Shown: positions 3,501 to 59,658 of the stretch, piece by piece
Layout: the number at the start of each line of letters is the position of its first letter
How positions within the stretch are numbered: the first letter of the stretch is position 1
The notes under the pieces: model-generated
Databases searched by the model: none
What the model was told of the DNA's origin: nothing
What the model saw: only the letters and a program-made list of their open reading frames with translations
Source: a virus
Length of the DNA: 64,000 nucleotides
IMG/VR virus record: IMGVR_UViG_3300045988_159607
Strand: one strand, 5' to 3'
Translations under genes and position numbers: made by a program

Positions 3501-3501
3501 T

Positions 3502-4155
3502 ATGAAATACGCAATAGTAGATTTATTGTGGGCAAAATCACATGGTATTGAAATACTGCCCGAAATGAGAACAAGTATAGATCAGAGTAAAGTTATTCTA
3601 CATGAAGAAATGTTAGTACCTTTCGAAGATGAATCATTTCCAAGATATTCATTTAGTGATCCAACTTTTATTGAATTGTTAAATAGTGAAGAATGGACTA
3701 TTGCAGAAGAAGAACCTGTAATTAATAGAGACTTTAGTCGTATCTTAGCTTTGAATATCCTTGGTGAAGAGATTGCTAAAGAAATCAATACATATGATCT
3801 TACTCCCGGTGAAGCATTACAAGTTAAAGATCATTATCCAGAATGGGTTGCAGGTATCACTGTTAAAGTAGGAGAAAGATATTTATCTGATAATGTTCTT
3901 TGGGAATGTATAAAAGAACATACTACTCAAGATAATTGGAAACCTTCTATGGCTACTGCAAGTTTGTGGAAAGTAGTGGATGAAGAACATGCAGGTACTA
4001 TAGATGATCCTATTATTTACATTCCACCTATGGAAATATTCAAAGACAAATACTATATCCAAAATGGTGTAAAATATAAATGTACAAGAAATAGCGAACA
4101 ACCTCTTACACATGATTTATCAGCCCTTGTTGGATTGTATGTTGAGAAAGTTTAA
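3502..4155 (+). CDS. protein with CBM5/12-like carbohydrate-binding motif
   Basis: VKVGERYLSDNVLWECIKEHTTQDNWKPSMATASLWKVV fits the G..V.Y.G..Y.C...H.S...W.P.....LW pattern of chitin-binding type 3 / CBM5_12 domains. Confidence 0.5.
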   Translation: MKYAIVDLLWAKSHGIEILPEMRTSIDQSKVILHEEMLVPFEDESFPRYSFSDPTFIELLNSEEWTIAEEEPVINRDFSRILALNILGEEIAKEINTYDLTPGEALQVKDHYPEWVAGITVKVGERYLSDNVLWECIKEHTTQDNWKPSMATASLWKVVDEEHAGTIDDPIIYIPPMEIFKDKYYIQNGVKYKCTRNSEQPLTHDLSALVGLYVEKV

Positions 4156-4172
4156 TTATCAATAAGTTAAGG

Positions 4173-7100: not shown

Positions 7101-9122
7101 GTCAATCAGGAAACAATGCCACAACAAAGGGTGGGTGTTTCCAATAAGACTTACAGCGCCCATATTACAGTGAAATCCCGAAATGGATATAACATTAATC
7201 GGGCTTACGTGACTTATGGAGGAAAGAGCGGGTACACCAACTCACAAGGACAGCTTACACTTACTGGAATACAATCAGGGTCGTACAATGCCACTTGTAC
7301 GGCAGACAATTATCAATCCCAAACGAAAAACAATATTGCAATATCGGGAGCTGACACGTATATAGATTTCACTCTTGACTATGAGCTTACGACAACTTAT
7401 ATTTATCTTAGAAAGGAAAATGTATTGCAACCTTATGCTTCCGTGAATATAAGAACTACTGCGCCTGACGGTTCATCTTATTACAGTGGTACAGATCAGA
7501 CAAATGGAAGTGGTAGGATAACGGTTTCTTCTCCTTCTGGAGGTTATGTGTATGCTTCCGCTACGGATTCGGAATGTGTAGGGACAGGAGAAGAAGCAGC
7601 GGACGCAGGAGGAAGTAGCATTTACCTTTATCTTTGGAAAGCACTCATTGTTTCTTATAGTGGGTCACCACAGACACCTTCTGTGTCAAGTGGTGTTTAT
7701 GAGATAATAGGAAGCGAAGTAAGAGTGCAGGGAGGAAGCAGGAACACAAGCAACCCTTCTACTGTGTATGCCAATTTCAGAAATCACACAAGAGCTACAG
7801 CCATTAAACAGTGGCCCGTGTCATTTTCCATACAAGGAAGTACCGGAACTTATAATATAGACGCAGCCGGAGGTAATCATTCTGCCTTTAGAGGATGCAC
7901 AAGTCTTTCATCGATTGCAACAAACACAATTCCTTCTATTTCAGGGGGTGTTATCTGTTGGTTTAGAGATTGCACAAGTCTTAGGTCTATTCCTTCCGGG
8001 TTGTTTACTAAAATGACAGGCAATTCTGCTGCCGGCGCATTTTGGGGTAGTGGCGTGACAAGCCTTCCGAGTGGACAACTTGTTCCTACTTCATGCATTT
8101 ATCATTCTTCTATGTTCAGAAGTTGCAAAAATTTGACTTCATGTGTTGGTAATGGTACTTTTGGAAAGGGAGGTGGTACAGAAGATTTCCATGCTGTATT
8201 TTATGAATGCACAGCTTTGAAAAATACAGGAGGTCAATCAGCTACAACTTCTCCATTTAGCAATTCAACGAATGCACAGTATATGCAATATACATTTCAA
8301 GGCTGCACAGCCATAACCGAACTTCCAGTATTATGGTTCAGATATTGTACAAACATTGTTTCTTTTGTTGGTTGCTTTGTTGGTTGCACAAGTCTTGTTG
8401 ACGGTTGGTCTACTGCTATGTTCTCTTACTCTTCGAAGGCAACAAACATGCAGTCATTGTTTGAGAATTGTACTTATTTGTCTATTCCTTATGGGCAGGG
8501 ACTTCCGTCAAGTGTAACGAATGCTTCAAGAATGTTTGCTAATTGCAAGAACTTGTCTGACATATCTTCTTTTGATATGAAGAATGGAAAGTTGCAGAAT
8601 GCAGAAAGTATGTTTGAGAACACGGGCGTGAAACAAATTCCCGCTAAGTTCTTCAATGACCTTACAACACTCACTAACCTTAGGAGATGCTTTGCAGGAT
8701 GCACGTCACTCACTTCTTTTGGCAGAACAGGAAACTATGTAGGGCAACCGGGAACATCTGCACGTCCTGTGAATGTGGATATAGGAAATCAGTTTAACAA
8801 CACCAATTTTGAAAATATTGACAATAGTTTGAATTGTACCGAAATGTTTTCAGGCTGTTCAAATCTTTCTTTAGGAACAGAACAGACTTATGCAGTTTCT
8901 TATACATCTTTTTATGATCGTTCTGTTGCAGGGGTAGGGAAAGTTAATATGGACAGAATGTTTTATGGTTGTTCTAAACTTGGAACCGTCCCTGTTATTC
9001 AAATCCTTACAGGATCATCTAATTATGTAAAGATAACGGAGTCTGGAAACAATAACGTAACAAGTCATAGCCAGACTTTTACAGGCACAAATTGCGAGGG
9101 TGTCCCAAGTGGATGGAAATAG
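4173..9122 (+). CDS. giant tail fibre/adhesin: about 10 prealbumin-like (CarboxypepD_reg-like) repeats plus C-terminal BspA-type leucine-rich repeats
   Basis: 1649 aa. Repeats of roughly 85 aa carry ...V.V...G....TDSSGNA.F..PG.Y.Y.VSK..Y. The C-terminal third has about 12 copies of F.gCtsL.sI (FRGCTSLSSI, FRDCTSLRSIP, FYECTALKN, FQGCTAITELP, FANCKNLSDI, FAGCTSLTSF, FSGCSNLS, FYGCSKLGTVP). Confidence 0.7.
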   Translation: MSQEIYNKTVFKRFFEENDPAVMEWAENVLEKVSSPGILPTFIKKDGEDFKAYWETVCHIFALVVLYAKQYNEIDTNKILFELFIENRGLVTDEVNTLEQMKYLFNNYVKEYRKRGTLDIVNKEGTILGELLRLIRYKTEDEFIFALLMSRDTGWTMGHSSPTWNRTDTVLNVTKGYETTESVKDLNAYPLVNPTGVVIVDDIDNDGNPIQAMTFVGNALVGISSEIDKTKLLPISENLTYQISFKAKVSSTSNQNLKFGVEVFDEAIQPMVCKEFYGSVESNNFVSDSKGILELPVAGVYYECRAILSRKNRAYEKQLELNFPKGRGLQMKGGMKFLSLNLTQDRSVASLTSVFIYDIKIKPLFLPFYQGNLGEKDVIAAYYLNNSLASENGVKNFTEDYLVAYKNIMGSEDIRPLKEKNVIFKVLSDRGSYIEGASISILNKVLVTNRNGEASIVLYPGDYSIDVEKSLFMNIEDRLFQVLEDDEETQVEYIQMQGDVYERKVTFVVRGENERPIQNALVTFNGEFKYTDSSGNAIFMAFPGLYPYTVSKTDYYTVSKNINVQDDQSEPVTLVLIPRYTVTFTVTNSSTGAVEGANVTLTAKGKLAAEDSIAYSESRITGTGGRAVFTNILGGDYTYLVERQNWIPVNGDITVDSNKDIQVNFNPMPTFNMTFTVNDYNTFTGEKKPLNGATVKFAGLTKQTSNNGQAVFEGVLGGKYSYDVFYDNNHQRVYVENYEFYNNSNLTIDLKQLTHKTTIKVFGAGGMVVEGAKVNVNGKDFTQKDSSGIVLELPNGVYTAIASYEEYEDREQQFTVNGAAQVVSIYMDQTLYDLTFVVTEDNGIISNGTRITLNQGGAGEQTGLTNNGQIKFSVPRMRYDWVASKQYFSDQTGVVQPNDLPKTVNVAMPRKETRVQFYVYNSDTGLPVSGASVKPEGLSTQNTGSDGTTTFTMQMGKTYKYEVSVYDYQPTEGSVTVNQETMPQQRVGVSNKTYSAHITVKSRNGYNINRAYVTYGGKSGYTNSQGQLTLTGIQSGSYNATCTADNYQSQTKNNIAISGADTYIDFTLDYELTTTYIYLRKENVLQPYASVNIRTTAPDGSSYYSGTDQTNGSGRITVSSPSGGYVYASATDSECVGTGEEAADAGGSSIYLYLWKALIVSYSGSPQTPSVSSGVYEIIGSEVRVQGGSRNTSNPSTVYANFRNHTRATAIKQWPVSFSIQGSTGTYNIDAAGGNHSAFRGCTSLSSIATNTIPSISGGVICWFRDCTSLRSIPSGLFTKMTGNSAAGAFWGSGVTSLPSGQLVPTSCIYHSSMFRSCKNLTSCVGNGTFGKGGGTEDFHAVFYECTALKNTGGQSATTSPFSNSTNAQYMQYTFQGCTAITELPVLWFRYCTNIVSFVGCFVGCTSLVDGWSTAMFSYSSKATNMQSLFENCTYLSIPYGQGLPSSVTNASRMFANCKNLSDISSFDMKNGKLQNAESMFENTGVKQIPAKFFNDLTTLTNLRRCFAGCTSLTSFGRTGNYVGQPGTSARPVNVDIGNQFNNTNFENIDNSLNCTEMFSGCSNLSLGTEQTYAVSYTSFYDRSVAGVGKVNMDRMFYGCSKLGTVPVIQILTGSSNYVKITESGNNNVTSHSQTFTGTNCEGVPSGWK

Positions 9123-15094: not shown

Positions 15095-17194
15095 ATGGCA
15101 GTCATATACAATTCAAAGGGCGGAATACTTACCGAACTACAATCAAAAAGGTTGTTTACAACGGTGGACGACATTATAGACCGGCTTCCTTCCACTACTG
15201 TGCGATTCTTGTTTTCTGGTGGAAGCAGAAAGGATTTGGACAAAATGCTGGACACTATAATCAACCAGACCGAGTATGCCATGAATTTTGGACGTTCGCT
15301 TGACACGGAAAAGCTGGGGTATGTGGACAATCTGTTTGCTTCAATGGATGAAAATCTAAGGATTCTGTCTTTTAATTATTTCAAGGCGACAGTCCTTTCC
15401 AATTTCAATATGGGATGGCGAAACTTGGAATGGGGGAATCTTACACAGTTATTTCCCTGGAGCAGCTATTTGTGTTCGCGAAGTAGTGGAAAGTGCGTTT
15501 CTCCTGATACTTTGATAGTTATGGCAGATGGTTTGCTAAAAAAAGTCCAGGATATAAGGGTAGGTGATAAGGTGATGGGACAAGATTTGAAATCTCGCAA
15601 TGTCTTGGAACTGCACCACGGAGAAACCTATATGTACGAAGTAAGACAGAAAGGTGGAGATAGCTATATAGTAAGCGAAGGACACATCCTTTGTCTTGCT
15701 GACGGCACTTATATTCCTGTTGAAATCGCCGAAATGAACCAAAGAAGAGCTGCCAAATATGAAGGTTATAAAGTTTCAAGGGATGGGAAATTCAAGAAAA
15801 CGGAAATTTTTATAACCTTGTTGGATGAAGGTGAGTATTATGGTTTTGCTTGTGACGGAGATCATAAGTTTTTGCTTGCTGACGGCACAGTAACGCACAA
15901 CAGTTTCGAGTGGTGTTACGCGTTCCCTTTATGGAGGTTATACTCCTATACACGTCCTATGTTGTATGGAGGGGATACGATAGACAACAAGAACCGGAAA
16001 GAAACCGCTATGATCACAAACACAATGACACTTGCAAAAGTGCATGTGAACAAGATTATAGAGGAAATATCCACCAATGATATATTGAAGGAAAAACTTG
16101 ATCCGAACGGCAAGGCTAAACTTGGAGAAACGGCAATAGAAGGTGAGAATGGTGCGATTCTTCATGTTCGTGGTAAAGATGGGTTTATTCGTGGTTTGCA
16201 CGTTGGAGCAGCAATCATAGATGATATGCCGGACGAAAGTTCTCTTTACAGCGATGAGCAAAGAGAAAAGCTAAAGGAAACATTTAGAGGGACTATTACT
16301 CCTATTGTTGAGCCTTACGGATATCTGATTGTGTCCGGTACGCCTTATTCTACTGCTCCTAACGAATTGTACAATGTCATTAAGGGGGATAAGCGTTTTT
16401 ATCTGTTCGAATATCCTATCATATTCCCAGACGGACGTCCTCTTGCTCCTGACAGGTATATGTTTGAAGATATAAAAAGGAAAAGAACAGAGCTTGGTTC
16501 TATTGTGTTTGCACGAGAATACCTTGTGATTCCTATTTCGGACAACTCAACTATTTTTCCGTATGAATATCTTAGAAGGGCAACTGCCAGCATGGATAAG
16601 GTTTCCTTTGCGGACAGCATAGAGTTTTATCCGTTCGAACTTAGAAGGGTGATTGTGGGATGCGACTTCGCTGTTTCTGGTAATATCGGTGCTGACTACA
16701 CTGTTTATTCCGTATGGGGTGTTGATTTCTCCGGTAATTACCACCTTGTGAATTATTTCAGGGCAAAAGGTATGTCTCACAATGAGCAGGTGGACAAGAT
16801 TGTTCTTTTCAATCGTTTGTTTAAGCCTGATAAGATCGTGTGCGAGGCTAACGGATTTCAAGGGATATTGTCAGCACTTGCAAGAGAAAGAGGACTTACC
16901 AATATCGAACAATTTACCACTACGGAAGGAAACAAAAAGGACTTGTACACCGGACTTCCGTCTTTGTCTGCCATGTTTGAAAGAGGACAGATCAGAACGC
17001 CTTACAAGGAAGGTGAAACAAGGGAAAAGGTGGAATTGATGTTCAGTGAGTTTTCTTCTATCACTTTTAGAAGCGATAAAGGAAAACTGGAAGCAAGTTC
17101 GGGACATGATGATTTATGCCTTTCAAGCTGGTTTGCAATAAACACCTTACGAGAAGAAGGCGAAAGTAGTGGTTTTAGTATCAATTTGGTTTAA
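15095..17194 (+). CDS. terL: terminase large subunit, interrupted by a mini-intein
   Basis: Walker A SRSSGK|...|S, Walker B GAAIIDD, and C-terminal RNase-H-like nuclease motifs (VGCDFAVSG, VCEANGFQG, GHDDLCLS). Confidence 0.8.
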   Translation: MAVIYNSKGGILTELQSKRLFTTVDDIIDRLPSTTVRFLFSGGSRKDLDKMLDTIINQTEYAMNFGRSLDTEKLGYVDNLFASMDENLRILSFNYFKATVLSNFNMGWRNLEWGNLTQLFPWSSYLCSRSSGKCVSPDTLIVMADGLLKKVQDIRVGDKVMGQDLKSRNVLELHHGETYMYEVRQKGGDSYIVSEGHILCLADGTYIPVEIAEMNQRRAAKYEGYKVSRDGKFKKTEIFITLLDEGEYYGFACDGDHKFLLADGTVTHNSFEWCYAFPLWRLYSYTRPMLYGGDTIDNKNRKETAMITNTMTLAKVHVNKIIEEISTNDILKEKLDPNGKAKLGETAIEGENGAILHVRGKDGFIRGLHVGAAIIDDMPDESSLYSDEQREKLKETFRGTITPIVEPYGYLIVSGTPYSTAPNELYNVIKGDKRFYLFEYPIIFPDGRPLAPDRYMFEDIKRKRTELGSIVFAREYLVIPISDNSTIFPYEYLRRATASMDKVSFADSIEFYPFELRRVIVGCDFAVSGNIGADYTVYSVWGVDFSGNYHLVNYFRAKGMSHNEQVDKIVLFNRLFKPDKIVCEANGFQGILSALARERGLTNIEQFTTTEGNKKDLYTGLPSLSAMFERGQIRTPYKEGETREKVELMFSEFSSITFRSDKGKLEASSGHDDLCLSSWFAINTLREEGESSGFSINLV
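15494..15901 (+). mobile_element. mini-intein (136 aa) in the TerL Walker A motif
   Basis: Starts CVSPDTLIVMADG (block A). Has SEGHILCLADG (block B) and ends EYYGFACDGDHKFLLADGTVTHN followed by +1 Ser. Removing it gives SRSSGKSFEW. Confidence 0.8.
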
Positions 17195-23349: not shown

Positions 23350-26300
23350 ATGGAAAATCTGTTTAACGAGTTGGAAGAATATCTTTCTTCCAATACAATA
23401 CAATACACTTCTGACAGGGAAAACTATACCGTGTCATTTGATGGAAAGACATACGAGCTTTTTTCTCCAAATGATGATGGGTATTTCTTTGATGAAGATT
23501 TTCGATGGGACAATGAAGCTACCGAATATGATGGATATGTCTTTCGTTTTGGTGGCGTATGGTACACCATAGAGAAAGGACAGGAACGTGATCCTAAGCT
23601 GAATCGTGTAAAATGGAGAGGGCAAAGCGAAGTGGCAGGGCTTTCTTCCAATTTTTTGGGCGTGCATGGTTCATTTGAGCTTCTAAACGGAACAAGCCTA
23701 TATTCTGATTGGGTGAAGAAAGCCAAATTCTTAGGGATCGAACGTCTTGGGATAGTGGAAAAGGGGACACTTGCAGGAGCATTGAAATTTCAGAATGCTT
23801 GCAAATCTGTAGGAATTATCCCTGTGTTTGGGTTGGAAGTCCCTGTAAAAGATGAAAAAAAAGACATTTCGTTCACTTACAAAATCTATGCTAAAAACGA
23901 AAAGGGGTGGCAGCATCTTCTTGCCATCAACAAAATAATCAATTGTGATTCTTCCGGGAAATTCATAACTCCCAAGGATATGTCGGAGCATGTGACAGAT
24001 GTGTTTATCATATTTGACCCGAAAACAATTGATTATACTGATGTTCCTATTCTTTTAAGAAACAAGCATAACGTGTTTTGGCAAGCTGATACAGTGGAAT
24101 ATGCAAAGTTCAACAGAGATACAGAATATCTTACAAACTTTGAAGCCTTTTACAAGTCGAAAATGAAACCTGTAGCACTTTGCGATGCTTTCTATATTGA
24201 ACCGGAATACTATATTCTAAGGGAAACTGTAAACAAGATAGGAAAGAAGGTTAATCATAAATCCTACAACCAGTATTTTAAGGACGAAGTGACTTACATG
24301 GAAGAACTTCTTTCTTTGTTTGGAGATCAGTCTGTAGGGGAAGCCTTTTATTTAAAGGCACGGGAAAATATGGATATGATTGCGGAAAGCTGCAATTTTG
24401 AAATTCCTACTGACAGTAGACATCTTCCTCGTTACGAAATGACAAAAGAGGAAAAAGAAAAGTATGAATCCAACGAAGACATGTTTGATTCCCTTATCTA
24501 TGAAGGTCTGGAGAATAAACCGGAGCTTTTGGAAGACTATTCGGAAGATGTGTTGGTAGAACGGATTGAAAGGGAATCCGATACGATCAAATTTGGAGAT
24601 GTAGTGGATTATTTTTTGATCTTACGTGATATCGTCAATTGGTGCAAGGGGAACGATATTCTATTAGGTGGAGGAAGAGGTTCGTCAGCAGGATGTTTAA
24701 TTTCTTACCTTTTTGGTATTGTAAATACAAATGCCTTAAAGTTTAACTTACTTTTTGAAAGATTTTTGAACAAAGGACGTGCCAAAGTATCTCTTCCCGA
24801 TGTGGACACGGATGTTCCAGGAGAGAAAAGACCATTGGTAAAACGATACATGGAAAATCGTTTTGGAGAAACACAAGTTTGTTCTGTGGGTACATATACT
24901 ACCTTGCAGATAAAACAAGCTATAAACGACGTAGGAAAGATTTATGGAGCTTCCATTCCTACTCTTAGAAGAATCTCCAAAATGATAGAAGATGTGAAGA
25001 CGGAGGAAGATTTTCTAAGACTTGCTCATAGAAAAGAAGAAATAGCGCAATTCATGAATAAATATCCTGAAATGATGAATGTTGTTTTCCTTCTTCTTGG
25101 ACAACAAAAGGCAGCTTCTATTCATGCTTGTGCTATGATGATTTTTCCAAAGGAAAAGACAATGTACGAGTGGTGTCCTGTAAGAAAGGTGGACAATCTT
25201 GTTGTTAGCGAATGGGAAGGCGGAGAAATGGATGAGGCAGGTTTTCTGAAAGAAGATATCTTAGGAATCGAGCAGCTTGATAAATTTACCGATATTCTTA
25301 CCTTGATAGAAAAGAATACTGGAAAGAAGATCAATCTCTATACAGACATAGAATATGATGATTCAGAAGTGTACCGCTATTTTGCAAACGGCTGGCTTAG
25401 CGATATATTCCAATTCTCTGCAAAGGGACTTTCTTCTTACACACAGAAAATGAAACCTAAAAATATGGATGATGTGATTGCTGCACTTTCCTTGTTCCGT
25501 CCCGGACCAATGGAAAACGGCTTTCACATGGATTATATTGCATTGAAAAATGGAGAAAAAGAACCTGAATATCCTATTGGTGCAGAAGAAATATTGAAAG
25601 ATACATACGGGCTTCTTACTACACAGGAACAAATCATGAATATTTGCAATCAACTTGCTGATTTTGACTTAGTTACTTGTGATAAAGTACGCAAGGCATT
25701 GGGTAAGAAAAAGTTAGATGTTCTTCTCCCGTTAAAGGCAAAGTTCATAGAAGGGTACGTAAGCAAATTCGGAAGCAAAGGTGTAACCAAAGAGAGCGCA
25801 GAACATCTTTGGGATCAGATGGAAGAATTTGCTAAGTATTCGTTCAATCGCTGTATTTCAGGTAGTTGCAAGTTTTTAAGGAACGCTTGCTCTAAAAGTA
25901 AAAGACAACCAACCATTGAAGAGATGTATTTGATCCGAAACGATATTGAATTTGCGAAAGCAAATAATTGGTTGCCACTTAGAAGTAAATATATGAGATT
26001 GGGGTACGGGGAATGTCTTACTATGTGTGAAGATGGTAGAATTAGAACACGTAAGATTAAAGATATTCGATTTGCTGGCGTAAGGCAAACTTATAAAATT
26101 ACTTTAGAAGAAGGTCGGTATATTTCTGTTACAGATAATCACAAGTTTCCTACTCAAAGGGGAAAGGTAATGTGCAAAGATTTAGTAGTAGGAGAAGATA
26201 GTTTATTTGTCCAACTACCGTATGAGAAAACAGACAGCCAGCGATATAATTTTACAAATCTTAGAGGTAAAGACTGGTCTAAAGATCATAGAGAGTTTTT

Positions 26301-27633
26301 AAATTCTCAAAAAGGTCACATGGGTTTCGTAAAAACAAACGGAGAATCCTCTAAATTTAAAGATTTTAGGTCTGAAAATGGAGGGTGGGGGATTTGTAAA
26401 ATATGCAAGAAAGAAAGTCGATTAGAGATACATCATGTTGATGGGAATAGACGCAATAATGAAAATGAAAACCTTATTTCTATCTGCGCTTCTTGTCATA
26501 AGAAAATTCATTATCGAGAATTTAATAGGACAAGACGAGGGGAGAAAGGCTATCCTTCTAAACTAATGAGAATTGTTAGTATTGAGCCTGATAAGATAGA
26601 AAATGTATATGATGTTGAAGTGGACGATCCAAACCATAATTTTTGTACGGAACAAGGTGTTATTACTTGTAATAGTCACGCTGCTGCTTACGCTATTAAC
26701 GCTTACAATTCTTTGTGGCTGAAAGTACATTATCCATTGGAGTTTTGGTCGGTTGCCTTATCTCGTGCAAGTAAAGATGATTTTCCTCGTTACATTAATG
26801 AGATGAATCAAACGGAAGGGATCGAAATCAAGCCTGTCAATATCAACAAATCTGATGTTGGCATCGTAGGTGACAAAAAGAGCAACAGTGTTTATTGGGC
26901 GCTCAATGCCACCCAACAAGTCGGAGAAAAGGCACAGGAACAGATTATCAAAGAGAGAAATGAGAATGGAGATTATTTTTCTTTGGAAGAGTTTGTAGAC
27001 CGTCATTCCTTTAAGGGTTCTTCCGTTAATAAGTCCACTGTTGAAAACCTTATTTATTCAGGTGCTTTTGACGAGATGGACGAAACAAGAGAGTTTTCCA
27101 ATATCTTCTCTGCAAGGGAATATATGCTTGGGAAATATCGAGAAAAGAACCGTATCAAGATAGATAGGGAAAAGGACGAATACAGCGTTGCTTTCAGCAA
27201 AAACAAGATAGGTAAGGATTGGTGGTGGCTTTTGCAACAGAAAAACAAGTCCGGTTTCGCTTTCTTTGATTACAAGAAATTGACAGAGGAATACCTTCGG
27301 CAGAAAGCAAAGACTGCGGAATATTACGATGTGGACGATTTGCAAAACTATGACGGTTCTACTTATAAAATGGCAATGGTGGGAGGATATGTGTTGGAAG
27401 TGGAAGAAAAGGAGTCAAAAACAGGGGCATTTGCCAGCCTTCTACTTGAAAACAACTACAAATTTCTTCGTGTGGTGATATTCCCTGCCGACTATATGGA
27501 TAAAGAAGAATATATCCAAAGTTGCAAGAAGAACATCTTACTGCTTACAGGAAAGGTTTCTTTTGATAGATTTAAAGAGGAATATGTGATACAAGCAAAT
27601 GGAAACAGTCAATTTATAAAATTGGGAGTGTGA
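23350..27633 (+). CDS. dnaE: DNA polymerase III alpha (DnaE-type) replicase, interrupted by an HNH intein
   Basis: PHP-like N-terminus, GGGRGSSAGCLISYLFGI, PDVDTD, FRPGPM, and YSFNR|...|SHAAAYA. Confidence 0.8.
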   Translation: MENLFNELEEYLSSNTIQYTSDRENYTVSFDGKTYELFSPNDDGYFFDEDFRWDNEATEYDGYVFRFGGVWYTIEKGQERDPKLNRVKWRGQSEVAGLSSNFLGVHGSFELLNGTSLYSDWVKKAKFLGIERLGIVEKGTLAGALKFQNACKSVGIIPVFGLEVPVKDEKKDISFTYKIYAKNEKGWQHLLAINKIINCDSSGKFITPKDMSEHVTDVFIIFDPKTIDYTDVPILLRNKHNVFWQADTVEYAKFNRDTEYLTNFEAFYKSKMKPVALCDAFYIEPEYYILRETVNKIGKKVNHKSYNQYFKDEVTYMEELLSLFGDQSVGEAFYLKARENMDMIAESCNFEIPTDSRHLPRYEMTKEEKEKYESNEDMFDSLIYEGLENKPELLEDYSEDVLVERIERESDTIKFGDVVDYFLILRDIVNWCKGNDILLGGGRGSSAGCLISYLFGIVNTNALKFNLLFERFLNKGRAKVSLPDVDTDVPGEKRPLVKRYMENRFGETQVCSVGTYTTLQIKQAINDVGKIYGASIPTLRRISKMIEDVKTEEDFLRLAHRKEEIAQFMNKYPEMMNVVFLLLGQQKAASIHACAMMIFPKEKTMYEWCPVRKVDNLVVSEWEGGEMDEAGFLKEDILGIEQLDKFTDILTLIEKNTGKKINLYTDIEYDDSEVYRYFANGWLSDIFQFSAKGLSSYTQKMKPKNMDDVIAALSLFRPGPMENGFHMDYIALKNGEKEPEYPIGAEEILKDTYGLLTTQEQIMNICNQLADFDLVTCDKVRKALGKKKLDVLLPLKAKFIEGYVSKFGSKGVTKESAEHLWDQMEEFAKYSFNRCISGSCKFLRNACSKSKRQPTIEEMYLIRNDIEFAKANNWLPLRSKYMRLGYGECLTMCEDGRIRTRKIKDIRFAGVRQTYKITLEEGRYISVTDNHKFPTQRGKVMCKDLVVGEDSLFVQLPYEKTDSQRYNFTNLRGKDWSKDHREFLNSQKGHMGFVKTNGESSKFKDFRSENGGWGICKICKKESRLEIHHVDGNRRNNENENLISICASCHKKIHYREFNRTRRGEKGYPSKLMRIVSIEPDKIENVYDVEVDDPNHNFCTEQGVITCNSHAAAYAINAYNSLWLKVHYPLEFWSVALSRASKDDFPRYINEMNQTEGIEIKPVNINKSDVGIVGDKKSNSVYWALNATQQVGEKAQEQIIKERNENGDYFSLEEFVDRHSFKGSSVNKSTVENLIYSGAFDEMDETREFSNIFSAREYMLGKYREKNRIKIDREKDEYSVAFSKNKIGKDWWWLLQQKNKSGFAFFDYKKLTEEYLRQKAKTAEYYDVDDLQNYDGSTYKMAMVGGYVLEVEEKESKTGAFASLLLENNYKFLRVVIFPADYMDKEEYIQSCKKNILLLTGKVSFDRFKEEYVIQANGNSQFIKLGV
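25852..26673 (+). mobile_element. intein (274 aa) with HNH homing-endonuclease domain in the DnaE FN(K/R)SHAAAY motif
   Basis: Starts CISGSC. Block B VTDNHKFPT. HNH CKICKK..EIHHVDGNRRNNENENLISICASCHKKIH. Ends VYDVEVDDPNHNFCTEQGVITCN followed by +1 Ser. Confidence 0.8.
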
Positions 27634-30095: not shown

Positions 30096-30131
30096 GAAAG
30101 GGAATGGAGAACTTTGTGTTCTCCCCCTTTC
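30096..30131 (+). terminator. strong hairpin (terminator/attenuator-like)
   Basis: GAAAGGG-aat-GGAGAAC-tttgt-GTTCTCC-CCCTTTC. No clear T-run follows. Confidence 0.4.
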
Positions 30132-30146
30132 CTAACAATTTCGATC

Positions 30147-31196
30147 ATGAACAGCAAATATTTAGCTATAATTTCAACGGACCATCATCTTACTGCCGAT
30201 AATGCTACTATTATAAAAGATATTCTTTTGGAAGAACTTGACTTGGCAGAAAAGAAAAAGATACAAACCCATATATGGTTGGGTGATGTTTTTGATAATA
30301 GGGTGTCACAAAGAGAAGTATGTCTTTCCACATTGAATGATGTCCTGGAAGAATACGACAAACGCGGACACCATGTGATCTGTATTCCCGGCAACCATGA
30401 CAAAACATCCTACACAAGCAAGAAATCGTTTCTTACTCCTTTTAAATATCATCCGTCTTTTACTTTGGTAGAAGAATTGGACGGAATGCAAGTAGAAGGT
30501 GTGTATTGTTTTTTTCTTCCGTTTTTTACAGATGATATTCTTTTGGATGAACTGGAAGAAATAGGGGATAAAAGAAAGAAGAATATCCTCTTTGGACATT
30601 TTGCGGTCACAGGAAGCAAGAACATGGACGGATCGGAAGTGTCCAACCTTTTAAAACCTTCCATGTTCCAGATGTTCAAAAAAGTGTACTTGGGACACTA
30701 TCACAACTACCAACGGGTAGGAGAGAATATCTATCATTTAGGAAGTGTCCAACAAAACAACTTCGGGGAAGATGAAAAGAAGGGTTTCTGGCTTTTGGAT
30801 TCGGATTTGAATGTAGACCTTGTTTCTTCTACAAAAGGACCTGTATTTAAGAAACTGGAAATTGATTTGGGGGAAACTCCCCACAAACAGGCGGTGTCAC
30901 TTATCAAGAAATTCAAAAAGGAGAACCCTACTGCCCGTGTAAGGGTGGAAGTCTGGGGAGAACAATCTTCACTCGATGCCTTTGATAAGGATGCCTTTAC
31001 AAAAGAAGGCATAGATATTAAGAAAAAGTTCAAGGAAGTGGAAGAAAAACATTCTATGTTGACAGAAGTAAAAACACTTGACAAAAAGGACATAGAAGAA
31101 AGATTTTCCGCTTTTTGTAAGGAAAACGAATATGACGAAAAAGAAGGAAAAGAAATTTTAGACAAGTTGATGTATGGCGAAGAAAAAGGAAACTAA
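30147..31196 (+). CDS. sbcD: SbcD/Mre11-like nuclease
   Basis: Calcineurin-like phosphoesterase motifs: ISTDHH, LGDVFD, IPGNHD, GHFAV, LGHYHN. Start taken at MNSKYLAI. Confidence 0.7.
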   Translation: MNSKYLAIISTDHHLTADNATIIKDILLEELDLAEKKKIQTHIWLGDVFDNRVSQREVCLSTLNDVLEEYDKRGHHVICIPGNHDKTSYTSKKSFLTPFKYHPSFTLVEELDGMQVEGVYCFFLPFFTDDILLDELEEIGDKRKKNILFGHFAVTGSKNMDGSEVSNLLKPSMFQMFKKVYLGHYHNYQRVGENIYHLGSVQQNNFGEDEKKGFWLLDSDLNVDLVSSTKGPVFKKLEIDLGETPHKQAVSLIKKFKKENPTARVRVEVWGEQSSLDAFDKDAFTKEGIDIKKKFKEVEEKHSMLTEVKTLDKKDIEERFSAFCKENEYDEKEGKEILDKLMYGEEKGN

Positions 31197-32262
31197 GAAA
31201 GTGGAAGAAGCAGTAACTGGGGAAGTGCAGCAACCTAAAGAAGAAAAGAAACCGAACCGTCTTGGTGATCTTATAAGCCGGATTGAAAGTAGGTTTGGAA
31301 AGGAAGCCATAGCGGGAAAGAAGCAAGATATAGAGTTCGTACATTCTGGTTCTTTTCTGTTAGACGAGATACTTGGTGGAGGATGGGCGAAAGGACGCAT
31401 AGTGGAGGCTTACGGAGGCTTTTCTTCCGGTAAGACAAGCATAGCTTTCCATCTTGCTACCGAAATCCAAAAACAAGGAATGGCGGTAGGGTATCTTGAT
31501 ACAGAAAATGCAGTTGATTCGAAATACATGGGAGCTATCGGTGTAGACCTTTCTCCTGACAAATTCATTCTTTCTCAACCTTCCACAGCAGAGGAAACAC
31601 TGGAAATAGCAAAGGAAATGTGCAATGAACCTTCTATCGGATTGGTGGTGATTGATTCCATTGCAGGACTTGTCCCGACCGCTCTTTTGAACGGGGAAGC
31701 CGGAGATGCTCACATAGGACTTACAGCAAGGCTTTTAAGCTCACAGGTAAATATCTTGAAAAACATCTGCAAGCAAACAGGGTGCATTCTATTCTGCATC
31801 AATCAGATTAGATCAAACATAGGCGGATATGGCAATGCCACTACTACTCCAGGAGGATTTGCAATACCTTTTTATGCAAGTCAGAGAGTTGAGCTTGCCC
31901 GTGTAGGTTCTGATAAGGAAGGTGAAGTGTCCGTTGCAAACAAAGTGAAGATCACATGCAGGAAAAACAAAGTTGCTCCACCTATGAAAACTTGTAATAT
32001 TGTTATCCGTTTTGGTGTAGGTATTGACAAGGTGATGGAAATGCTTAACATGGGATTGGACTTGGGTGTGCTCACAAAGAAAGGAACGTACATCTATTAT
32101 GGGGAAGAAAAGATAGGATTCGGATTCCCTGCTGCAAGAAAAAAGCTGATCAAAGAAATGGAACTTTTTGACAAGATCAAAAAAGATGTTCTTTCAGAGT
32201 TCAGAAAGAAAGAAGTAACATTTGAAAACAAGGGGGTGGAAGATGAAACCGGTCAAGATTGA
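31174..32262 (+). CDS. recA: RecA recombinase
   Basis: SGSFLLDEILGGGWAKGRIVEAYGGFSSGKTS (Walker A), LVVIDSIAGL (Walker B), FCINQIR. Confidence 0.85.
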   Translation: MAKKKETKKVEEAVTGEVQQPKEEKKPNRLGDLISRIESRFGKEAIAGKKQDIEFVHSGSFLLDEILGGGWAKGRIVEAYGGFSSGKTSIAFHLATEIQKQGMAVGYLDTENAVDSKYMGAIGVDLSPDKFILSQPSTAEETLEIAKEMCNEPSIGLVVIDSIAGLVPTALLNGEAGDAHIGLTARLLSSQVNILKNICKQTGCILFCINQIRSNIGGYGNATTTPGGFAIPFYASQRVELARVGSDKEGEVSVANKVKITCRKNKVAPPMKTCNIVIRFGVGIDKVMEMLNMGLDLGVLTKKGTYIYYGEEKIGFGFPAARKKLIKEMELFDKIKKDVLSEFRKKEVTFENKGVEDETGQD

Positions 32263-34654
32263 AGCAACAAATTTTGTGTCATTCGAGCATTTTGAATACA
32301 CATTCCAAGATGGGGTAACTGCACTTGTGGGATTGAATAAAACAGACGACAATCAAGGTAGTAACGGTAGTGGTAAAGCGTTGACGATGGATTCCGATAT
32401 TCTTACCCCTAATGGGTTTGTAAAAATGAGGAATATCAAAGTAGGAGACATTATCCTTCATCCTTCCGGTGCTTATCAAGTAGTAAGGGCAATTCCGTTC
32501 CATGATACAGATATTGCATACAAGATTACTTTTTCTGACGGTACGGAAGTAAAATGCAATAAAGAGCATTTATGGAAAGTGAGAACAAACCAAAGCGAAG
32601 AATGGTCTGTAATTTCGCTTGGCAAGATCATGGAAAGAAGCAAAGATGAAGAAGTGTTTTTTGAAGTTCCCGGTTGCTTTGGCAGACCGTCTAAAAAAAT
32701 GGTTTCTTTTACCTGTATGGGTGCGGAAGAGCAACAATGTATTACCGTTTCGGGAGAGGACGGAATGTTTATCACGAACAACTACACGCCTACTCACAAT
32801 TCTTCCATGCAACAGGCAGTTTATTTTGCCATAACAGGTAACAACTACCGGAGCAGTATTGACAAGAAACTGATTAGAAACGGTGAGAAGGAAGCAAAAG
32901 TATTACTTGATATAGAATGTCCCATAAGGAAAGAAACTCTCCATATTGAGCGCATTTTGCCCTTAAAAGGAAGTAGCCGCCTTAATGTGTCGTTGAATGG
33001 AGAACAGGTCAGTCTTGCTACTGTAAAAGACGGCAACAATTATATCCTTTCATGGATGGGTATCTCACCGGAAGATTTGAAAAGCTATTTTCTTATCTGT
33101 AAAGAATATTACAAGTCGTTCTTTAAAAGTTCCAATACGGACAAATTGGCTCTCATAAGTCGTTTTATCAATTATGACTTCTTGGACGGTAGCAAGGATA
33201 TTATACAAAAGGAACTGGACGAAATTTCATCTAAAAAGTCAGCTATCCAAAGCAAAAGAGATCGTGCGGAAGGGAGTGTAGAAGCATTGCGGCAAATGAT
33301 AGAGGATGCCGTTAATTTCGACTTCGAAGCGGATCGAAAGGAAAGGATCGAAAGGGTGGAAAGTAAAATCAAGTCTTTAAAAGAAGATATTGATTCTGCT
33401 AAATACAATATTGACTACAACAAGAAAAATATTGACAAAGGAAAGAAAACACTTGAAGTCTTGGAAGAAGAACTTCGAGAAGCCGAAGAAAAGAAAAAGA
33501 AACTTCCTTCTACTAAGGAAATAGAAGATGTGATTGAATCCGTCAAAAAAGAACTTGGAAAAGCCAAAGAAGATCAGAATGAGATTTTGGAAACAAAAGA
33601 AGAGCTTTTGAAAATCCATGACGAACTGAAAGTGTCTCTTCGGAAAGTTCTTGTAAACCTTTCTGGGACGATTACATGCCCGAAATGCAAGCACAAATTC
33701 CTCACATTACAGGATACCACACTTGAAAAGGAAGAAAAGAAAAAGGAGAAAATAGGGAAACAGGAAAAGGAAGTTGTCGGAGAGATAACATCTTTGGATG
33801 AATCCCTAAAGGAATACGAAGACCTTATTTCTTCTTTCATTCAAGTGAAAAACGAACAGGAGGATGAACTTGACAAAATCCGGGAAGCAGGAAAAGAAAT
33901 TTCATCTGCTGTCTATAAGATCACAAGCGAAATAGAATCTCAAAAGTCCAATATTTCCATTCTTGAAAAGAGAAATGAAGGACTTTTGGAGAGCATAGCT
34001 TCCTATAAAGAGGATGTAAAACGTTTGGAAAAGCAGATAAAGGAAATCGAGAAGGAAGTACCTTCTTCTATTGATACATCCTCACAGGAAAAGCAGATAA
34101 AGGAAATGACGGCCACTATTGCAGGATATGACAAGGAAATGTCGGAATTGGAAAACGAAATGTTCCGTAAGAAGGAATGGATAGGAAGATTCAAATCATT
34201 CAAGATGTATCTTGCGATAGAACAGTTAAAGAATATCCAGCTTCGGGCAAACAATATTCTGAAAGCAGAAAACAGCGATCTTAGAATTGTCATAGAAGGA
34301 TTTAAGACGAAAGCAGACGGAGACATAAAAGAAGAGATAACGCCTTATGTTGTTAGGGACGAGGCGGAAAACTTCTGGTATTACAGTGGCGGAGAGCGTG
34401 CAAGGGTGGAAATCGCTTTGATTATAGCCATACAAGGAATGATAAACGAGACGAACAAATGGGGAGGATTGCAATTCCTATCCATTGATGAAATCACAGA
34501 AGGACTATCGAAAGAAAGCCTATATGACGTGATAGAAGCATTGGAGTTCATTCAGTTTCCTATACTTGTTACAACTCATATTTCGAATGAAAACGCTTCA
34601 TGCAAAACACTTAAAATAATTAAGGAGAATGGTATAAGCCGTATAGAGAAATGA
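32243..34654 (+). CDS. sbcC: SbcC/Rad50-like ATPase, interrupted by a mini-intein
   Basis: N-terminal MKPVKIEATNFVSF...GSNGSGK|...|SS. Long coiled coil with a CPKCKHKF zinc hook. Signature YSGGERARV. Walker B LSIDEITEGL. Start taken at the ATG at 32243. Confidence 0.75.
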   Translation: MKPVKIEATNFVSFEHFEYTFQDGVTALVGLNKTDDNQGSNGSGKALTMDSDILTPNGFVKMRNIKVGDIILHPSGAYQVVRAIPFHDTDIAYKITFSDGTEVKCNKEHLWKVRTNQSEEWSVISLGKIMERSKDEEVFFEVPGCFGRPSKKMVSFTCMGAEEQQCITVSGEDGMFITNNYTPTHNSSMQQAVYFAITGNNYRSSIDKKLIRNGEKEAKVLLDIECPIRKETLHIERILPLKGSSRLNVSLNGEQVSLATVKDGNNYILSWMGISPEDLKSYFLICKEYYKSFFKSSNTDKLALISRFINYDFLDGSKDIIQKELDEISSKKSAIQSKRDRAEGSVEALRQMIEDAVNFDFEADRKERIERVESKIKSLKEDIDSAKYNIDYNKKNIDKGKKTLEVLEEELREAEEKKKKLPSTKEIEDVIESVKKELGKAKEDQNEILETKEELLKIHDELKVSLRKVLVNLSGTITCPKCKHKFLTLQDTTLEKEEKKKEKIGKQEKEVVGEITSLDESLKEYEDLISSFIQVKNEQEDELDKIREAGKEISSAVYKITSEIESQKSNISILEKRNEGLLESIASYKEDVKRLEKQIKEIEKEVPSSIDTSSQEKQIKEMTATIAGYDKEMSELENEMFRKKEWIGRFKSFKMYLAIEQLKNIQLRANNILKAENSDLRIVIEGFKTKADGDIKEEITPYVVRDEAENFWYYSGGERARVEIALIIAIQGMINETNKWGGLQFLSIDEITEGLSKESLYDVIEALEFIQFPILVTTHISNENASCKTLKIIKENGISRIEK
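32378..32800 (+). mobile_element. mini-intein (141 aa), class 3-like (Ala1; Trp B:12, Cys F:4, Thr G:5), in the SbcC P-loop
   Basis: Starts ALTMDSDILTPNGF. Block B GTEVKCNKEHLW. Block F QQCITV. Ends NYTPTHN followed by +1 Ser. Removing it restores GSNGSGKSS. Confidence 0.7.
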
Positions 34655-35163
34655 GCAAAGAAACAGAATTGAAATTTTACATAGGGATAGATAACGGTGT
34701 GACCGGTTCTATAGGCATAGTAGGGAAAGAACTGACCTATTATGAGTTCATGGAAACGCCTGTCACATTCGGGCAGGATTACACAAAAGCAAAGAAGAAT
34801 GTGTCAAGGGTGAACGTGACAGCACTTGCCGAAATAATTTCTTCGTTGAAAGAATACGGACTATGCGTGGCCGTCTTGGAACGTCCTATGAAAAATCCGG
34901 CAAGGTTTGACGCCACATGTTCTGCCATGCGGGCTTTGGAAGCAGAACTTACCGTATTGGAACTTTATGATGTTCCTTATATGTTCATAGATTCCAAAGA
35001 GTGGCAAAAAGAAATGCTACCTAAAGGGATTGCAGGAACTAAAGAATTGAAAAAGGCGTCTCTTGATATAGGCAAAAGGTTGTTTCCTGATGTTAAGGAT
35101 AAACACCCCGATAGAGATGGAATTTTGATAGCGGAATACGCAAGAAGGAAATGTATTCTCTAA
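34651..35163 (+). CDS. RuvC-like Holliday-junction resolvase (putative)
   Basis: YIGIDNGVTGSIGIV (first acidic motif), VLERPM, HPDRDGILIAEYA. Lies next to recA and sbcCD. Confidence 0.45.
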   Translation: MSKETELKFYIGIDNGVTGSIGIVGKELTYYEFMETPVTFGQDYTKAKKNVSRVNVTALAEIISSLKEYGLCVAVLERPMKNPARFDATCSAMRALEAELTVLELYDVPYMFIDSKEWQKEMLPKGIAGTKELKKASLDIGKRLFPDVKDKHPDRDGILIAEYARRKCIL

Positions 35164-58382: not shown

Positions 58383-59606
58383 TTATACGGAAATCCGTAC
58401 CGGGTTCCACCAAAACCCTCTACTTTCTGGTAACATCGTTACATCAAAGGATTCTTTTTCTGATTTACGGATGATGTTAAAAGCTCCGTTTATATCAGCG
58501 TTGATTATCTTACCGGAAGAAGTTTTAAACAATCCTCGTTTGATTCTTCTTCCTTTATAGGATTCATGTTTACAAATCTTCTCATTATCCAAGAAACTAC
58601 ATTTAGAAGTATAAGATTCTTCAACAATCTTAACATTAATTCCTTCTAATGTTGCTTTATACGATATCATAGAGATAAACACATTGAAAGGAATAGACAC
58701 AAAGTTTTGATTATTACGTTTTCCGATATTGATCTCTTGTTTCCAGCATTTGTTATGACCGATTATGATCGTATTAATACCATTGGAAACTACATGATTA
58801 ATCAATATCCTACTTGCCTTATGAAGATAATCTTTGATCTTGTTGTTCCTTTTATTGGTTAATGACCTGATTTGTTTTGAAATCTGTTTATTGCCTTTTA
58901 ATTTAGATTTTAAGTATGATAATCTTTTATTATAATACTGGTTGATAGACTTCAAAGGTCTACCATTGATGATAAAACAAGAACCGTTGTTTGAAACACA
59001 GGAAGCTAAATTATCTAATCCTATATCAATACCAAGATAAGATTCATTATCTGACATAAGATCTTTTTCCTTCTTGTTGTAAATTATTTCAAGAACAATA
59101 TACCCATTCTTAGGAATGAATCTAAGTTGTTGAATATTTTGTTTATTGGTTCTTGTTGTAAAGGAAAACTGTTTTGGCAACTTAACAATGCCTTGCTTTA
59201 TCCATTTTTGAGAAAAAGCTGCGGTCGTAAAAACAGCAGTAAACAAACCGTCTTTGTTTAGATACCCAGGTATTCTAACAAATTCGGAATACTCACCTCT
59301 ATTCTTTTTATTAAGGAGATTAAAGAACGATTTAAAGTTTCTATCTACCATCATCAACACTTGTTGAGCAACTGGTGTTGGTAAAGCACGATAGTCAACA
59401 TCATTTTCTGTTTTCAACACTCTTTCGAGAGAATAATAGTTGAGGTATTTATACTTTACAGTATTATCATCTTTGTATTGAAAGTAGTGTTGTCTAACAA
59501 CATACAACCCTTTATTGTATAAGTTTTTGCACTTATGCAATAGGTCTTGAAGCTCATTGTAATATATTGAACTTTGTTTGATCGTATGTTGTTCGACTAA
59601 TCTCAT
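58383..59606 (-). CDS. tnpB: solo TnpB (OrfB) RuvC-like RNA-guided nuclease
   Basis: RuvC-I LGIDIGLDNLAS, RuvC-II VEESYTSKCS, RuvC-III NADINGAFNI. Start taken at MRLVEQ (compare MRLVYK in the other copy). A TATATTTG box lies 4 nt upstream. Confidence 0.8.
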   Translation of the reverse strand: MRLVEQHTIKQSSIYYNELQDLLHKCKNLYNKGLYVVRQHYFQYKDDNTVKYKYLNYYSLERVLKTENDVDYRALPTPVAQQVLMMVDRNFKSFFNLLNKKNRGEYSEFVRIPGYLNKDGLFTAVFTTAAFSQKWIKQGIVKLPKQFSFTTRTNKQNIQQLRFIPKNGYIVLEIIYNKKEKDLMSDNESYLGIDIGLDNLASCVSNNGSCFIINGRPLKSINQYYNKRLSYLKSKLKGNKQISKQIRSLTNKRNNKIKDYLHKASRILINHVVSNGINTIIIGHNKCWKQEINIGKRNNQNFVSIPFNVFISMISYKATLEGINVKIVEESYTSKCSFLDNEKICKHESYKGRRIKRGLFKTSSGKIINADINGAFNIIRKSEKESFDVTMLPESRGFWWNPVRISV

Positions 59607-59658
59607 GGCACAAATATAGAAATTATTATTTATAAATAAAAACAATTCGGTATATTTG

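Follow-up and report, generated by a model that had tools for sequence, protein, structure and literature searches.

One gene in a 64,000-nucleotide stretch of the virus record IMGVR_UViG_3300045988_159607 (IMG/VR), hereafter the window, encodes an SbcC/Rad50-like ATPase whose Walker A motif (P-loop) is split by an insert of 141 codons. Judging from its residues, its relatives and its predicted fold, we consider this insert, with a probability of roughly 0.88, to be a functional class 3 mini-intein that would be translated within the phage SbcC-like ATPase and remove itself after translation.

The insert and its boundaries

Translation of positions 32378-32800 (+) gives 141 codons, ALTMDSDILTPNGF…NNYTPTHN, in the reading frame of the open reading frame (ORF) 32222..34654, with GSNGSGK on the 5' side and SSMQQAVYF on the 3' side. 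The insert and its flanks are listed below; aa stands for amino acids, and a slash within a sequence marks an intein junction or insertion point.

32378..32800 (+): predicted mini-intein, 141 aa, Hint fold, without a homing endonuclease domain
32357..32377 (+): end of the N-extein and first part of the Walker A motif, GSNGSGK; intein-free homologues have GSNGSGK and then SS
32801..32806 (+): start of the C-extein, Ser+1 (G:8) and then Ser; predicted second nucleophile and Walker A Ser/Thr in one

The Lys that ends the N-extein is residue -1, the N-terminal scissile bond is the Lys(-1)-Ala1 peptide bond, and three motifs were located, namely GTEVKCNKEHLW (32540-32575), QQCITV (32732-32749) and PTHN/S (32789-32803). 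Deletion of the insert yields GSNGSGKSS, which is identical to the uninterrupted P-loop of intein-free homologues. The latter were searched for with the conceptually spliced ATPase head as the query and matched at 37-59% identity; their P-loops read DQGSNGSGKSSIQQ in P0155, NGSGKSS in P0158 and P0159, GKSF in P0157 and P0160, and GKSG in P0161 and P0163. Homologues of the ATPase head are present in 162 annotated phage records and are uninterrupted in all of the matches listed except MT835601. The nearest annotated SbcC homologues come from Cellulophaga, Tenacibaculum, Bacteroides and Chryseobacterium phages, and the suggestion of a first-pass annotation of this DNA that the virus is a Bacteroidota-type phage is plausible.

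The same annotation had described a 141-aa insert whose removal restores the P-loop, and this is borne out by the translation and by the intein-free homologues P0155, P0158 and P0159; the three motifs that it quoted and its other sequence statements hold as well. The alignment with intein-free SbcC homologues that it had proposed confirmed the insertion boundaries, which are exact because these homologues have GSNGSGKSS; the insert cannot slide either way because the residues concerned differ on the left (K versus N) and on the right (A versus S). Shifted boundaries that would provide Ser, Cys or Thr as residue 1 were considered and rejected, since the flanking residues permit no shift. The insert thus has what is asked of an intein, that is, an in-frame insertion, a conserved motif restored by its precise removal, and known intein-free homologues.

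Class 3 residues and their register

Class 3 inteins do not require a nucleophile at residue 1, usually have Ser or Thr (rarely Cys) at +1, and depend on Cys F:4 as the obligate first nucleophile, which makes a branched intermediate at block F (PMC5222942; PMC5050341; PMC7891396). The corresponding residues of the insert are:

32378..32380 (+): Ala1 (GCG), non-nucleophilic first residue, invariant in 48 distinct variants
32540..32575 (+): block B; His B:10 occupies 32567-32569 and Trp B:12 occupies 32573-32575
32732..32749 (+): block F, QQCITV; its Cys F:4 (32738-32740) is the predicted first nucleophile and branch point
32786..32800 (+): block G, TPTHN, with Thr G:5 at 32792-32794, His G:6 at 32795-32797 and Asn G:7 at 32798-32800

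In ORF numbering these are Lys52 and Ala53 at the N-terminal junction, H116 (B:10), W118 (B:12), C173 (F:4), T191 (G:5), H192, N193 and S194 (+1). Because Ala1 is non-nucleophilic, the N-S/N-O acyl shift of class 1 inteins is impossible.

The register of the blocks was tested apart from the assignment in the first-pass annotation, by profile alignment, by invariant columns and by family statistics. The profile alignment places the H-x-W of the family on HQW of 6bs8 (W118 on W67), its Cys on RCVEV of 6bs8 and 6rix, and its THN on PTHN of 6bs8. The family's W and C columns are occupied in 6riz by the engineered W65 and C107 (gp41-1 F65W, D107C), which according to the title of that entry replace Phe at B:12 and Asp at F:4. 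In alignment A1, which comprises 23 mini-inteins, the only invariant columns are two Gly together with His B:10, Trp B:12, Cys F:4, Thr G:5, His G:6 and Asn G:7. The family statistics were drawn from every intein domain among the 150 best representative matches:

B:10: His in 217 of 218 relatives
B:12: Trp in 214 of 218 relatives
Residue 1: Ala 143, Pro 30, Cys 10 and Ser 8 among 218 relatives
F:4: Cys in 199 of 199 relatives
G:5: Thr in 199 of 199 relatives
G:6-G:7: His-Asn in 194 of 199 relatives
+1: Thr 115, Ser 70 and Cys 14 (Ser or Thr in 185 of 199 relatives)

Among the 200 relative domains that combine a non-nucleophilic residue 1 with Trp B:12, 123 are directly preceded by '…GK'. The insert carries every residue by which class 3 is recognized (Ala1, Trp B:12, Cys F:4, Thr G:5 and Ser+1) and also the catalytic residues common to all intein classes (His B:10, His G:6, Asn G:7 and Ser+1). 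The assignment to class 3 is supported by the sequence and by the modelled fold, and it stands because W, C and T fall on B:12, F:4 and G:5. The first-pass annotation had called the insert class 3-type from Ala1 and the same triplet; its reading agrees with the alignment to 6bs8, 6rix and 6riz, with the family statistics and with the predicted fold, and the intein profile alignment that it recommended keeps W, C and T inside these three positions.

Hint fold and relatives of the insert

An exhaustive HMMER search of 1.84 billion representative proteins with the insert returned 7,485 relatives at E<=1e-3, of which 896 lie at E<=1e-10. The best full-length relatives reside in DnaB, PhoH, RecA, SF1/SF2 helicases, TerL and T2SSE ATPases, and relatives were found in 112 annotated phage records from many host phyla. 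A search of an indexed protein collection with the insert gave only two fragments of the same protein. A PDB search with the insert alone matched gp41-1 at 1e-12, 6bs8 (the class 3 intein of Msm DnaB) at 5e-6 and the inteins of MchDnaB-1 at 1e-3, and the best match with the family profile was again gp41-1 (5e-22). The number of relatives and the match to solved inteins at 1e-12 speak against a chance resemblance.

An AlphaFold2 model of the insert, built on alignment A1, has a mean pLDDT (predicted local distance difference test) of 92.6 and a pTM (predicted template modelling score) of 0.86. Foldseek found 42 PDB matches for this model at E<=1e-3, every one of them an intein, Hedgehog or BIL Hint domain, and the model is predicted to have a Hint fold. 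The six best-scoring entries belong to 6riz, 6riy/6rix, 6bs8 and 6qaz, with template modelling (TM) scores normalised to the target of 0.83-0.87, followed by class 1 inteins, Hedgehog and BIL domains.

With a total of 141 aa and no endonuclease domain between blocks B and F, the insert has the form of a mini-intein, and scans of curated domain libraries gave no LAGLIDADG, HNH or GIY-YIG match in it. The intein of a sister lineage, described below, has about 220 extra residues with two LAGLIDADG motifs between the same blocks.

Distribution and selection

The same 810-aa ORF was found in 65 viral contigs: MT835601, obtained from faecal samples from Mexico, and 64 contigs of IMG/VR, of which the longest reach about 100-109 kb. 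They form two clades, with identities to the window of about 97% and about 80%. All 65 contigs contain the insert, which is fixed in the window's lineage. Searched for as a degenerate DNA pattern, the empty junction (G-K-S-S-M-Q-Q-A-V-Y-F) had 0 matches in viral and metagenome collections, and the control pattern for the occupied junction matched 65 contigs. There are 48 distinct insert sequences, in which Ala1, H-L-W, Q-Q-C-I, P-T-H-N and S-S never change. Between the clades, the intein has a ratio of nonsynonymous to synonymous substitution rates (dN/dS) of 0.072, and three segments of the exteins have ratios of 0.048, 0.054 and 0.078. Such a pattern of selection and conservation would not be expected of a splicing-dead insertion in a Walker A loop, and through this purifying selection splicing itself gains indirect support.

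These data bear on the proposal that the element is a splicing-dead or cleavage-only Hint remnant, which would leave SbcC inactivated, cut into two fragments or burdened with a permanent 141-aa insertion in its P-loop. Degenerate inteins are known, for example Arthrobacter Arth_1007, termed an 'intein pseudogene' (PMC3196547); moreover, the insert is past its mobile phase, as it has no endonuclease, and curated Hint models score it below threshold. Nevertheless, purifying selection acts on the insert as strongly as on the host gene, and the six catalytic and signature residues plus Ser+1 are invariant across the 48 variants, which come from two clades with 20% divergence. The host has kept its C-terminal ATPase motifs intact, the gene lies within a conserved block of SbcD, UvsX, SbcC and resolvase genes, and an unspliced P-loop would part the Lys and Ser that bind ATP and Mg. 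We regard a remnant as very improbable.

It has also to be asked whether the intein is kept as a post-translational switch, with conditional splicing (redox, metal ions) through Cys60, Cys100 and Cys113 together with Cys F:4. This would fit the fixation in 65 of 65 genomes, the purifying selection over the whole intein beyond its catalytic residues, and the second, unrelated Cys1 mini-intein in the terminase P-loop of the same genome. The three cysteines are non-catalytic and invariant in the lineage. In Msm DnaBi1, Cys48 is reportedly the redox partner of the catalytic Cys; the aligned position here is Ala, so that this disulfide partner is not conserved. We consider a switch unlikely, and if it were true, activation of the SbcCD-type nuclease would be delayed until a particular stage of infection.

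A sister lineage and the origin of the mini-intein

A sister lineage, in which the SbcC head is 59% identical to that of the window, has the P-loop site in two states. The site is empty (GSNGSGK/SSIQQ) in contigs L068, L069, L071, L072 and L076. In L073-L075, and in part in L070, it contains a 361-aa intein with Ala1, EHLW, QCIEV and VVTHN/SS, which carries two LAGLIDADG motifs, LGCLLGDGT and LLRGILDTDGYV. The exteins of the empty and occupied alleles are essentially identical, with 98% DNA identity across 1.5 kb to either side. Between L071 and L074, five synonymous differences cluster in the four codons (G-S-G-K) 5' of the site, the empty version being GGATCGGGAAAA and the occupied version GGTAGTGGTAAA, and positions 32366-32377 of the window equal the occupied version exactly. 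This cluster of codon changes may be a co-conversion tract from homing, or may reflect selection for a cleavage-resistant site (homing-site immunity).

Two contigs of this lineage contain in-frame stops. In L068, at about 1768-1770, a stop (…NDIYS-stop-QGKL…) stands where L070, L071 and others have Leu, and it divides the SbcC gene of L068 into two predicted ORFs, of 200 and 458 aa. In L070, at about 320-360 in the endonuclease part of the intein, there is an in-frame stop with a local difference, …LNLFI-stop-VEKRKIFTRKK… versus …LNLFHLSRKKERSLQGKK…. Errors of assembly, decay of the gene or of the endonuclease, and recoding of stop codons are all possible causes.

The polymorphism of the sister lineage bears on the possibility that the segment is a conserved accessory domain of the mature SbcC family and not a mobile insertion. 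Its presence in every one of the 65 lineage members and the failure of the junction-pattern search to find an empty allele would suit such a domain. However, homologues of 37-59% identity and, MT835601 excepted, the annotated phage homologues listed have a continuous GxxGxGKS P-loop, the sister lineage is polymorphic at exactly the same site between flanks that are 98% identical, and the relatives of the segment are inteins in the unrelated ATPases DnaB, PhoH, RecA and TerL. An accessory domain is extremely improbable; the empty-site homologues effectively refute it, and the first-pass annotation had itself named retention of the 141-aa segment as a non-splicing domain in homologous SbcC proteins as a finding that would speak against an intein, whereas their P-loop is continuous.

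With the insert read as an intein, a history in three stages can be proposed. An endonuclease-bearing class 3 intein would have homed into the Walker A codons of the SbcC gene family; in the window's lineage it would then have become fixed and lost its LAGLIDADG domain; and the remaining mini-intein would have been kept splicing-competent by selection only because the host gene needs splicing. The window's element is probably an endonuclease-less descendant. The mini-intein and the 361-aa sister intein share 49% identity over the N-terminal 89 aa. This history fits the view that mini-inteins descend from endonuclease-bearing inteins (PMC5222942) and published ideas that inteins can pass between unrelated host genes by way of nucleotide-binding sites (bioRxiv 10.1101/2025.01.02.630785).

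In L079 (MT835760.1, a human faecal phage contig), ORF 1877-4402 encodes a DnaB-like helicase with a 364-aa class 3 LAGLIDADG intein in the P-loop, the junctions of which are GTGK/ALTLDS…IVTHN/TT. Over their full length, the 361-aa sister intein and this intein are 46% identical, and the pair is a candidate for a switch between the Walker A sites of unrelated host genes.

Proposed splicing pathway

The steps proposed here follow the class 3 pathway as published; what the present data show are the residues and how conserved they are, the fold, and the restored motif. In the precursor, 141 residues would separate the Walker A Lys and Ser and keep the protein inactive. Cys173 (F:4), aided by His116 (B:10), would attack the Lys52-Ala53 bond to form a branched block-F thioester, with Trp B:12 packing the site and Thr G:5 positioning the His. 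The N-extein acyl group would then pass to the hydroxyl of Ser194 (+1), giving a branched ester at block G, after which cyclisation of Asn193 (G:7), aided by His G:6, would release the intein. An O-to-N acyl shift would finally create the native Lys-Ser bond of GSNGSGKSS, and the active SbcC could work with the adjacent SbcD-like nuclease. With 141 residues between the Lys and Ser of Walker A, the precursor should have no ATPase activity, and splicing would therefore be required for SbcCD function.

Several points weigh against a functional class 3 mini-intein. The splicing mechanism has been assigned by homology. The His position of block F (F:13), which is often His, has Met/Gly here (DGMF), and B:7 is Asn and not Thr, although both positions vary in relatives too. 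All curated models score the insert below their cut-offs (Hint_2 0.03, PT-HINT 0.014, TIGR01445 0.06), although the profile and structure comparisons supersede these scores, and the proposed endonuclease loss draws on one sister lineage. In addition, a class 2-type attack by Ser+1 is compatible with the sequence taken alone (PMC5222942).

In such a class 2-like route, Ser+1 would attack the N-terminal junction directly and Cys F:4 would be structural or auxiliary; class 2 and class 3 inteins are alike in having no nucleophile at residue 1. Yet in three W-C-T inteins (Msm, Mle and Bvi) the change of Cys F:4 to Ala abolished splicing and cleavage, and the discussion of the same work gives Cys F:4 as an absolute requirement (PMC5222942). 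This Cys was found in all of the relatives counted and is invariant in the window's lineage, and the Ser at +1 is poorly suited as a nucleophile to attack a peptide bond directly. A class 2-like route is quite improbable, and the class 3 pathway through Cys F:4 is the one we prefer.

Comparison with known inteins

The ~140-aa class 3 mini-inteins Msm DnaB-1 (DnaBi1) and M. chimaera DnaB-1 (6bs8, 6rix, 6riy) likewise have no endonuclease and share an Ala-Leu start, H-x-W in block B, x-C-[VI]-x-V in block F and a P-T-H-N end with the window's intein. Their TM-scores normalised to the target are 0.85-0.87, and profile E-values range from 1e-17 to 3e-16 with all signature columns aligned. They are, however, only about 20-22% identical to it, and their host is an actinobacterial replicative helicase and not a phage SbcC.

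The best sequence match among solved structures is gp41-1, from a cyanophage-like metagenomic DnaB-type helicase (6qaz, and the class 3-mimicking 6riz with C1A, F65W and D107C). It is 28-29% identical, at the E-values given above for single sequence and family profile, and shares the THN C-terminus and a Ser+1-type junction. The entry titles imply native Cys1, Phe B:12 and Asp F:4, whereas the window's intein is contiguous and has a native W-C-T triplet; natural gp41-1 is a naturally split class 1 intein.

The sister LAGLIDADG intein (L073-L075, partial L070) shares with the window's intein the host family, the insertion point GSNGSGK/…/SS, the residues Ala1, QCI, THN and Ser+1, an EHLW block B, and the synonymous codons 5' of the site. 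It differs in being 361 aa long, polymorphic and equipped with a two-motif LAGLIDADG domain, while the window's 141-aa intein has no endonuclease and is fixed. A class signature is shared, furthermore, with the P-loop class 3 inteins of mycobacteriophage TerL1/DnaB, of PF672P2, of the cr111_1 TerL and of the DnaB-like protein of L079. The last three also share the insertion point between Lys and Ser/Thr of the Walker A motif and the gut-phage setting. Unlike the window's intein, these phage TerL and DnaB inteins sit in other host proteins and most carry LAGLIDADG, a domain that Pfam scans found in 37 of 65 relatives of the insert.

Host gene and its neighbourhood

The host gene and its neighbours are:

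32243..34654 (+): predicted SbcC/Rad50/T4 gp46-like ATPase precursor, 803 aa, or 662 aa without the insert
33677..33688 (+): CPKC (CxxC) in the middle of the host's coiled coil, read from sequence; Rad50-type zinc-hook-like
34382..34495 (+): C-terminal ATPase lobe, with ABC signature YSGGERA at 34382-34402 and Walker B/D-loop FLSIDEI at 34475-34495
30114..31196 (+): SbcD/Mre11-like nuclease subunit, partner of the host protein (phrog_100 'SbcD-like subunit', 3.9e-46)
31174..32262 (+): UvsX/RecA-like recombinase (phrog_97, 2.9e-63)
34651..35163 (+): Holliday junction resolvase (phrog_1770, 1.1e-9), so annotated in Bacteroides phage C3_41T2LP

After conceptual splicing, the protein matches phrog_77 at 3.6e-51 ('SbcC-like subunit of palindrome specific endonuclease'), which upholds the SbcC/Rad50-like identity first proposed for the host. 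Its Pfam matches, AAA_23 at 1.2e-5 (26.5 bits against a 27-bit cut-off) and SMC_N at 6e-4 over residues 12-656, are both below the curated cut-offs. In the interrupted precursor, Rad50/SMC matches are driven by the coiled coil only (NCBIfam Rad50 7e-12), and a Pfam scan gave no significant match to AAA_23 or SMC_N. The features of an SbcC/Rad50/gp46-type ATPase are all present, namely the Walker A motif, a long coiled coil with CxxC, the ABC signature, Walker B and an adjacent SbcD/Mre11 partner. The CPKC motif is presumably a putative zinc hook of the Rad50 kind, and the active site of the C-terminal ATPase lobe needs the repaired P-loop.

The ORF tool placed the start at TTG 32222, which gives the 810-aa ORF. 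The gene most likely starts at ATG 32243 (MKPVKIE) and not at the TTG, because the 803-aa representative P0001 and the homologues, which begin MKPI…, start there. The purine-rich stretch GGGGGTGGAAG precedes this ATG, which lies inside the end of the recombinase gene (to 32262). For the homologous recombinase gene in L068, the Pfam families RecA_N and Rad51 are recorded. The neighbourhood is a phage recombination and repair module.

Other elements in the window

Two further inteins were located:

15494-15901 (+): TerL mini-intein, 136 aa, within the terminase large subunit ORF 15095-17194
25852-26673 (+): DNA polymerase III alpha intein, 274 aa, class 1, within ORF 23350-27633

The first splits a P-loop between K and S (CSRSSGK/CVSPDT…GTVTHN/SFEW) and ends in THN like the SbcC intein. 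It is class 1-type, because by hand alignment it has Cys1, Leu at B:12 and Gly at F:4, and its similarity to the SbcC intein is slight (22% identity, E 0.014). Two P-loop inteins of different classes are thus present in one genome. The polymerase intein (YSFNR/CISGS…VYDVEVDD…VITCN/SHAAAY) has Cys1 and Asp at F:4 (block F VYDVEV), an HNH and not a LAGLIDADG endonuclease domain, and Cys instead of His as its penultimate residue. The earlier statement that two class 1 inteins accompany the SbcC intein in this genome holds with these two.

Two other ORFs of the window were recorded. A 420-aa ORF at 58383-59645 (-) matches OrfB_IS605 (5e-22) and Cas12f1-like TNB (8e-12) and represents a TnpB-type transposon-associated nuclease. 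The ORF at 4173-9122 (+), 1,649 aa long with four CarboxypepD_reg-like repeats (2.4e-30) and DUF285, is probably a large tail-fibre or adhesin-type protein.

Significance

The first-pass annotation had thought a class 3 intein in a Bacteroidota-type phage unusual, taking the class to be found chiefly in mycobacteriophage and actinobacterial helicase-type proteins. By 2020, 1,701 class 3 inteins had been catalogued in nr, 82.5% of them with a LAGLIDADG domain (PMC7891396); the Lys-to-Ser/Thr position of the Walker A motif is the 'classic' P-loop insertion site, and phages have been proposed as the source of class 3 inteins (PMC5050341). LAGLIDADG P-loop inteins with Ala1 and W-C-T are found in the cultured Parabacteroides phage PF672P2 (PF672P2_00026) and in the terminase of the crAss-like cr111_1, with a further Ala1/W-C-T P-loop intein in a DnaB-like helicase of a gut phage. 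Together with the 112 phage records noted above, these examples do not support the claim, since gut Bacteroidota phages carry such inteins, and class 3 inteins are not rare in phages of gut Bacteroidota.

The mini-intein is an ordinary addition to a large known family at a classic site, and only its host protein appears to be new; it leaves the current understanding of inteins unchanged. In the open-access literature we found no report of an intein in the P-loop of SbcC or Rad50, and Pfam scans of 65 relatives showed no host (0/65) of the SMC_N or AAA_23 type. A search of the 150 best intein relatives with the spliced SbcC returned the window's SbcC family alone. SbcC/Rad50 as a class 3 intein host appears to be unreported.

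For annotation, the gene should be treated as one intein-containing SbcC-like ATPase in which domain models miss both the host and the intein. For protein engineering, a contiguous class 3 intein of 141 aa with gp41-1 as its closest solved relative may serve as a scaffold, as its Ser+1 junction and internal nucleophile tolerate a non-Cys N-terminal junction. With this gene, SbcC/Rad50-type ATPases would join the P-loop proteins that host class 3 inteins. Related gut phages present a natural series of an empty site, an endonuclease-bearing intein and a fixed mini-intein without endonuclease, and this series, together with the adjoining co-conversion-like trace, is usable for studying the cycle of intein invasion, fixation and decay.

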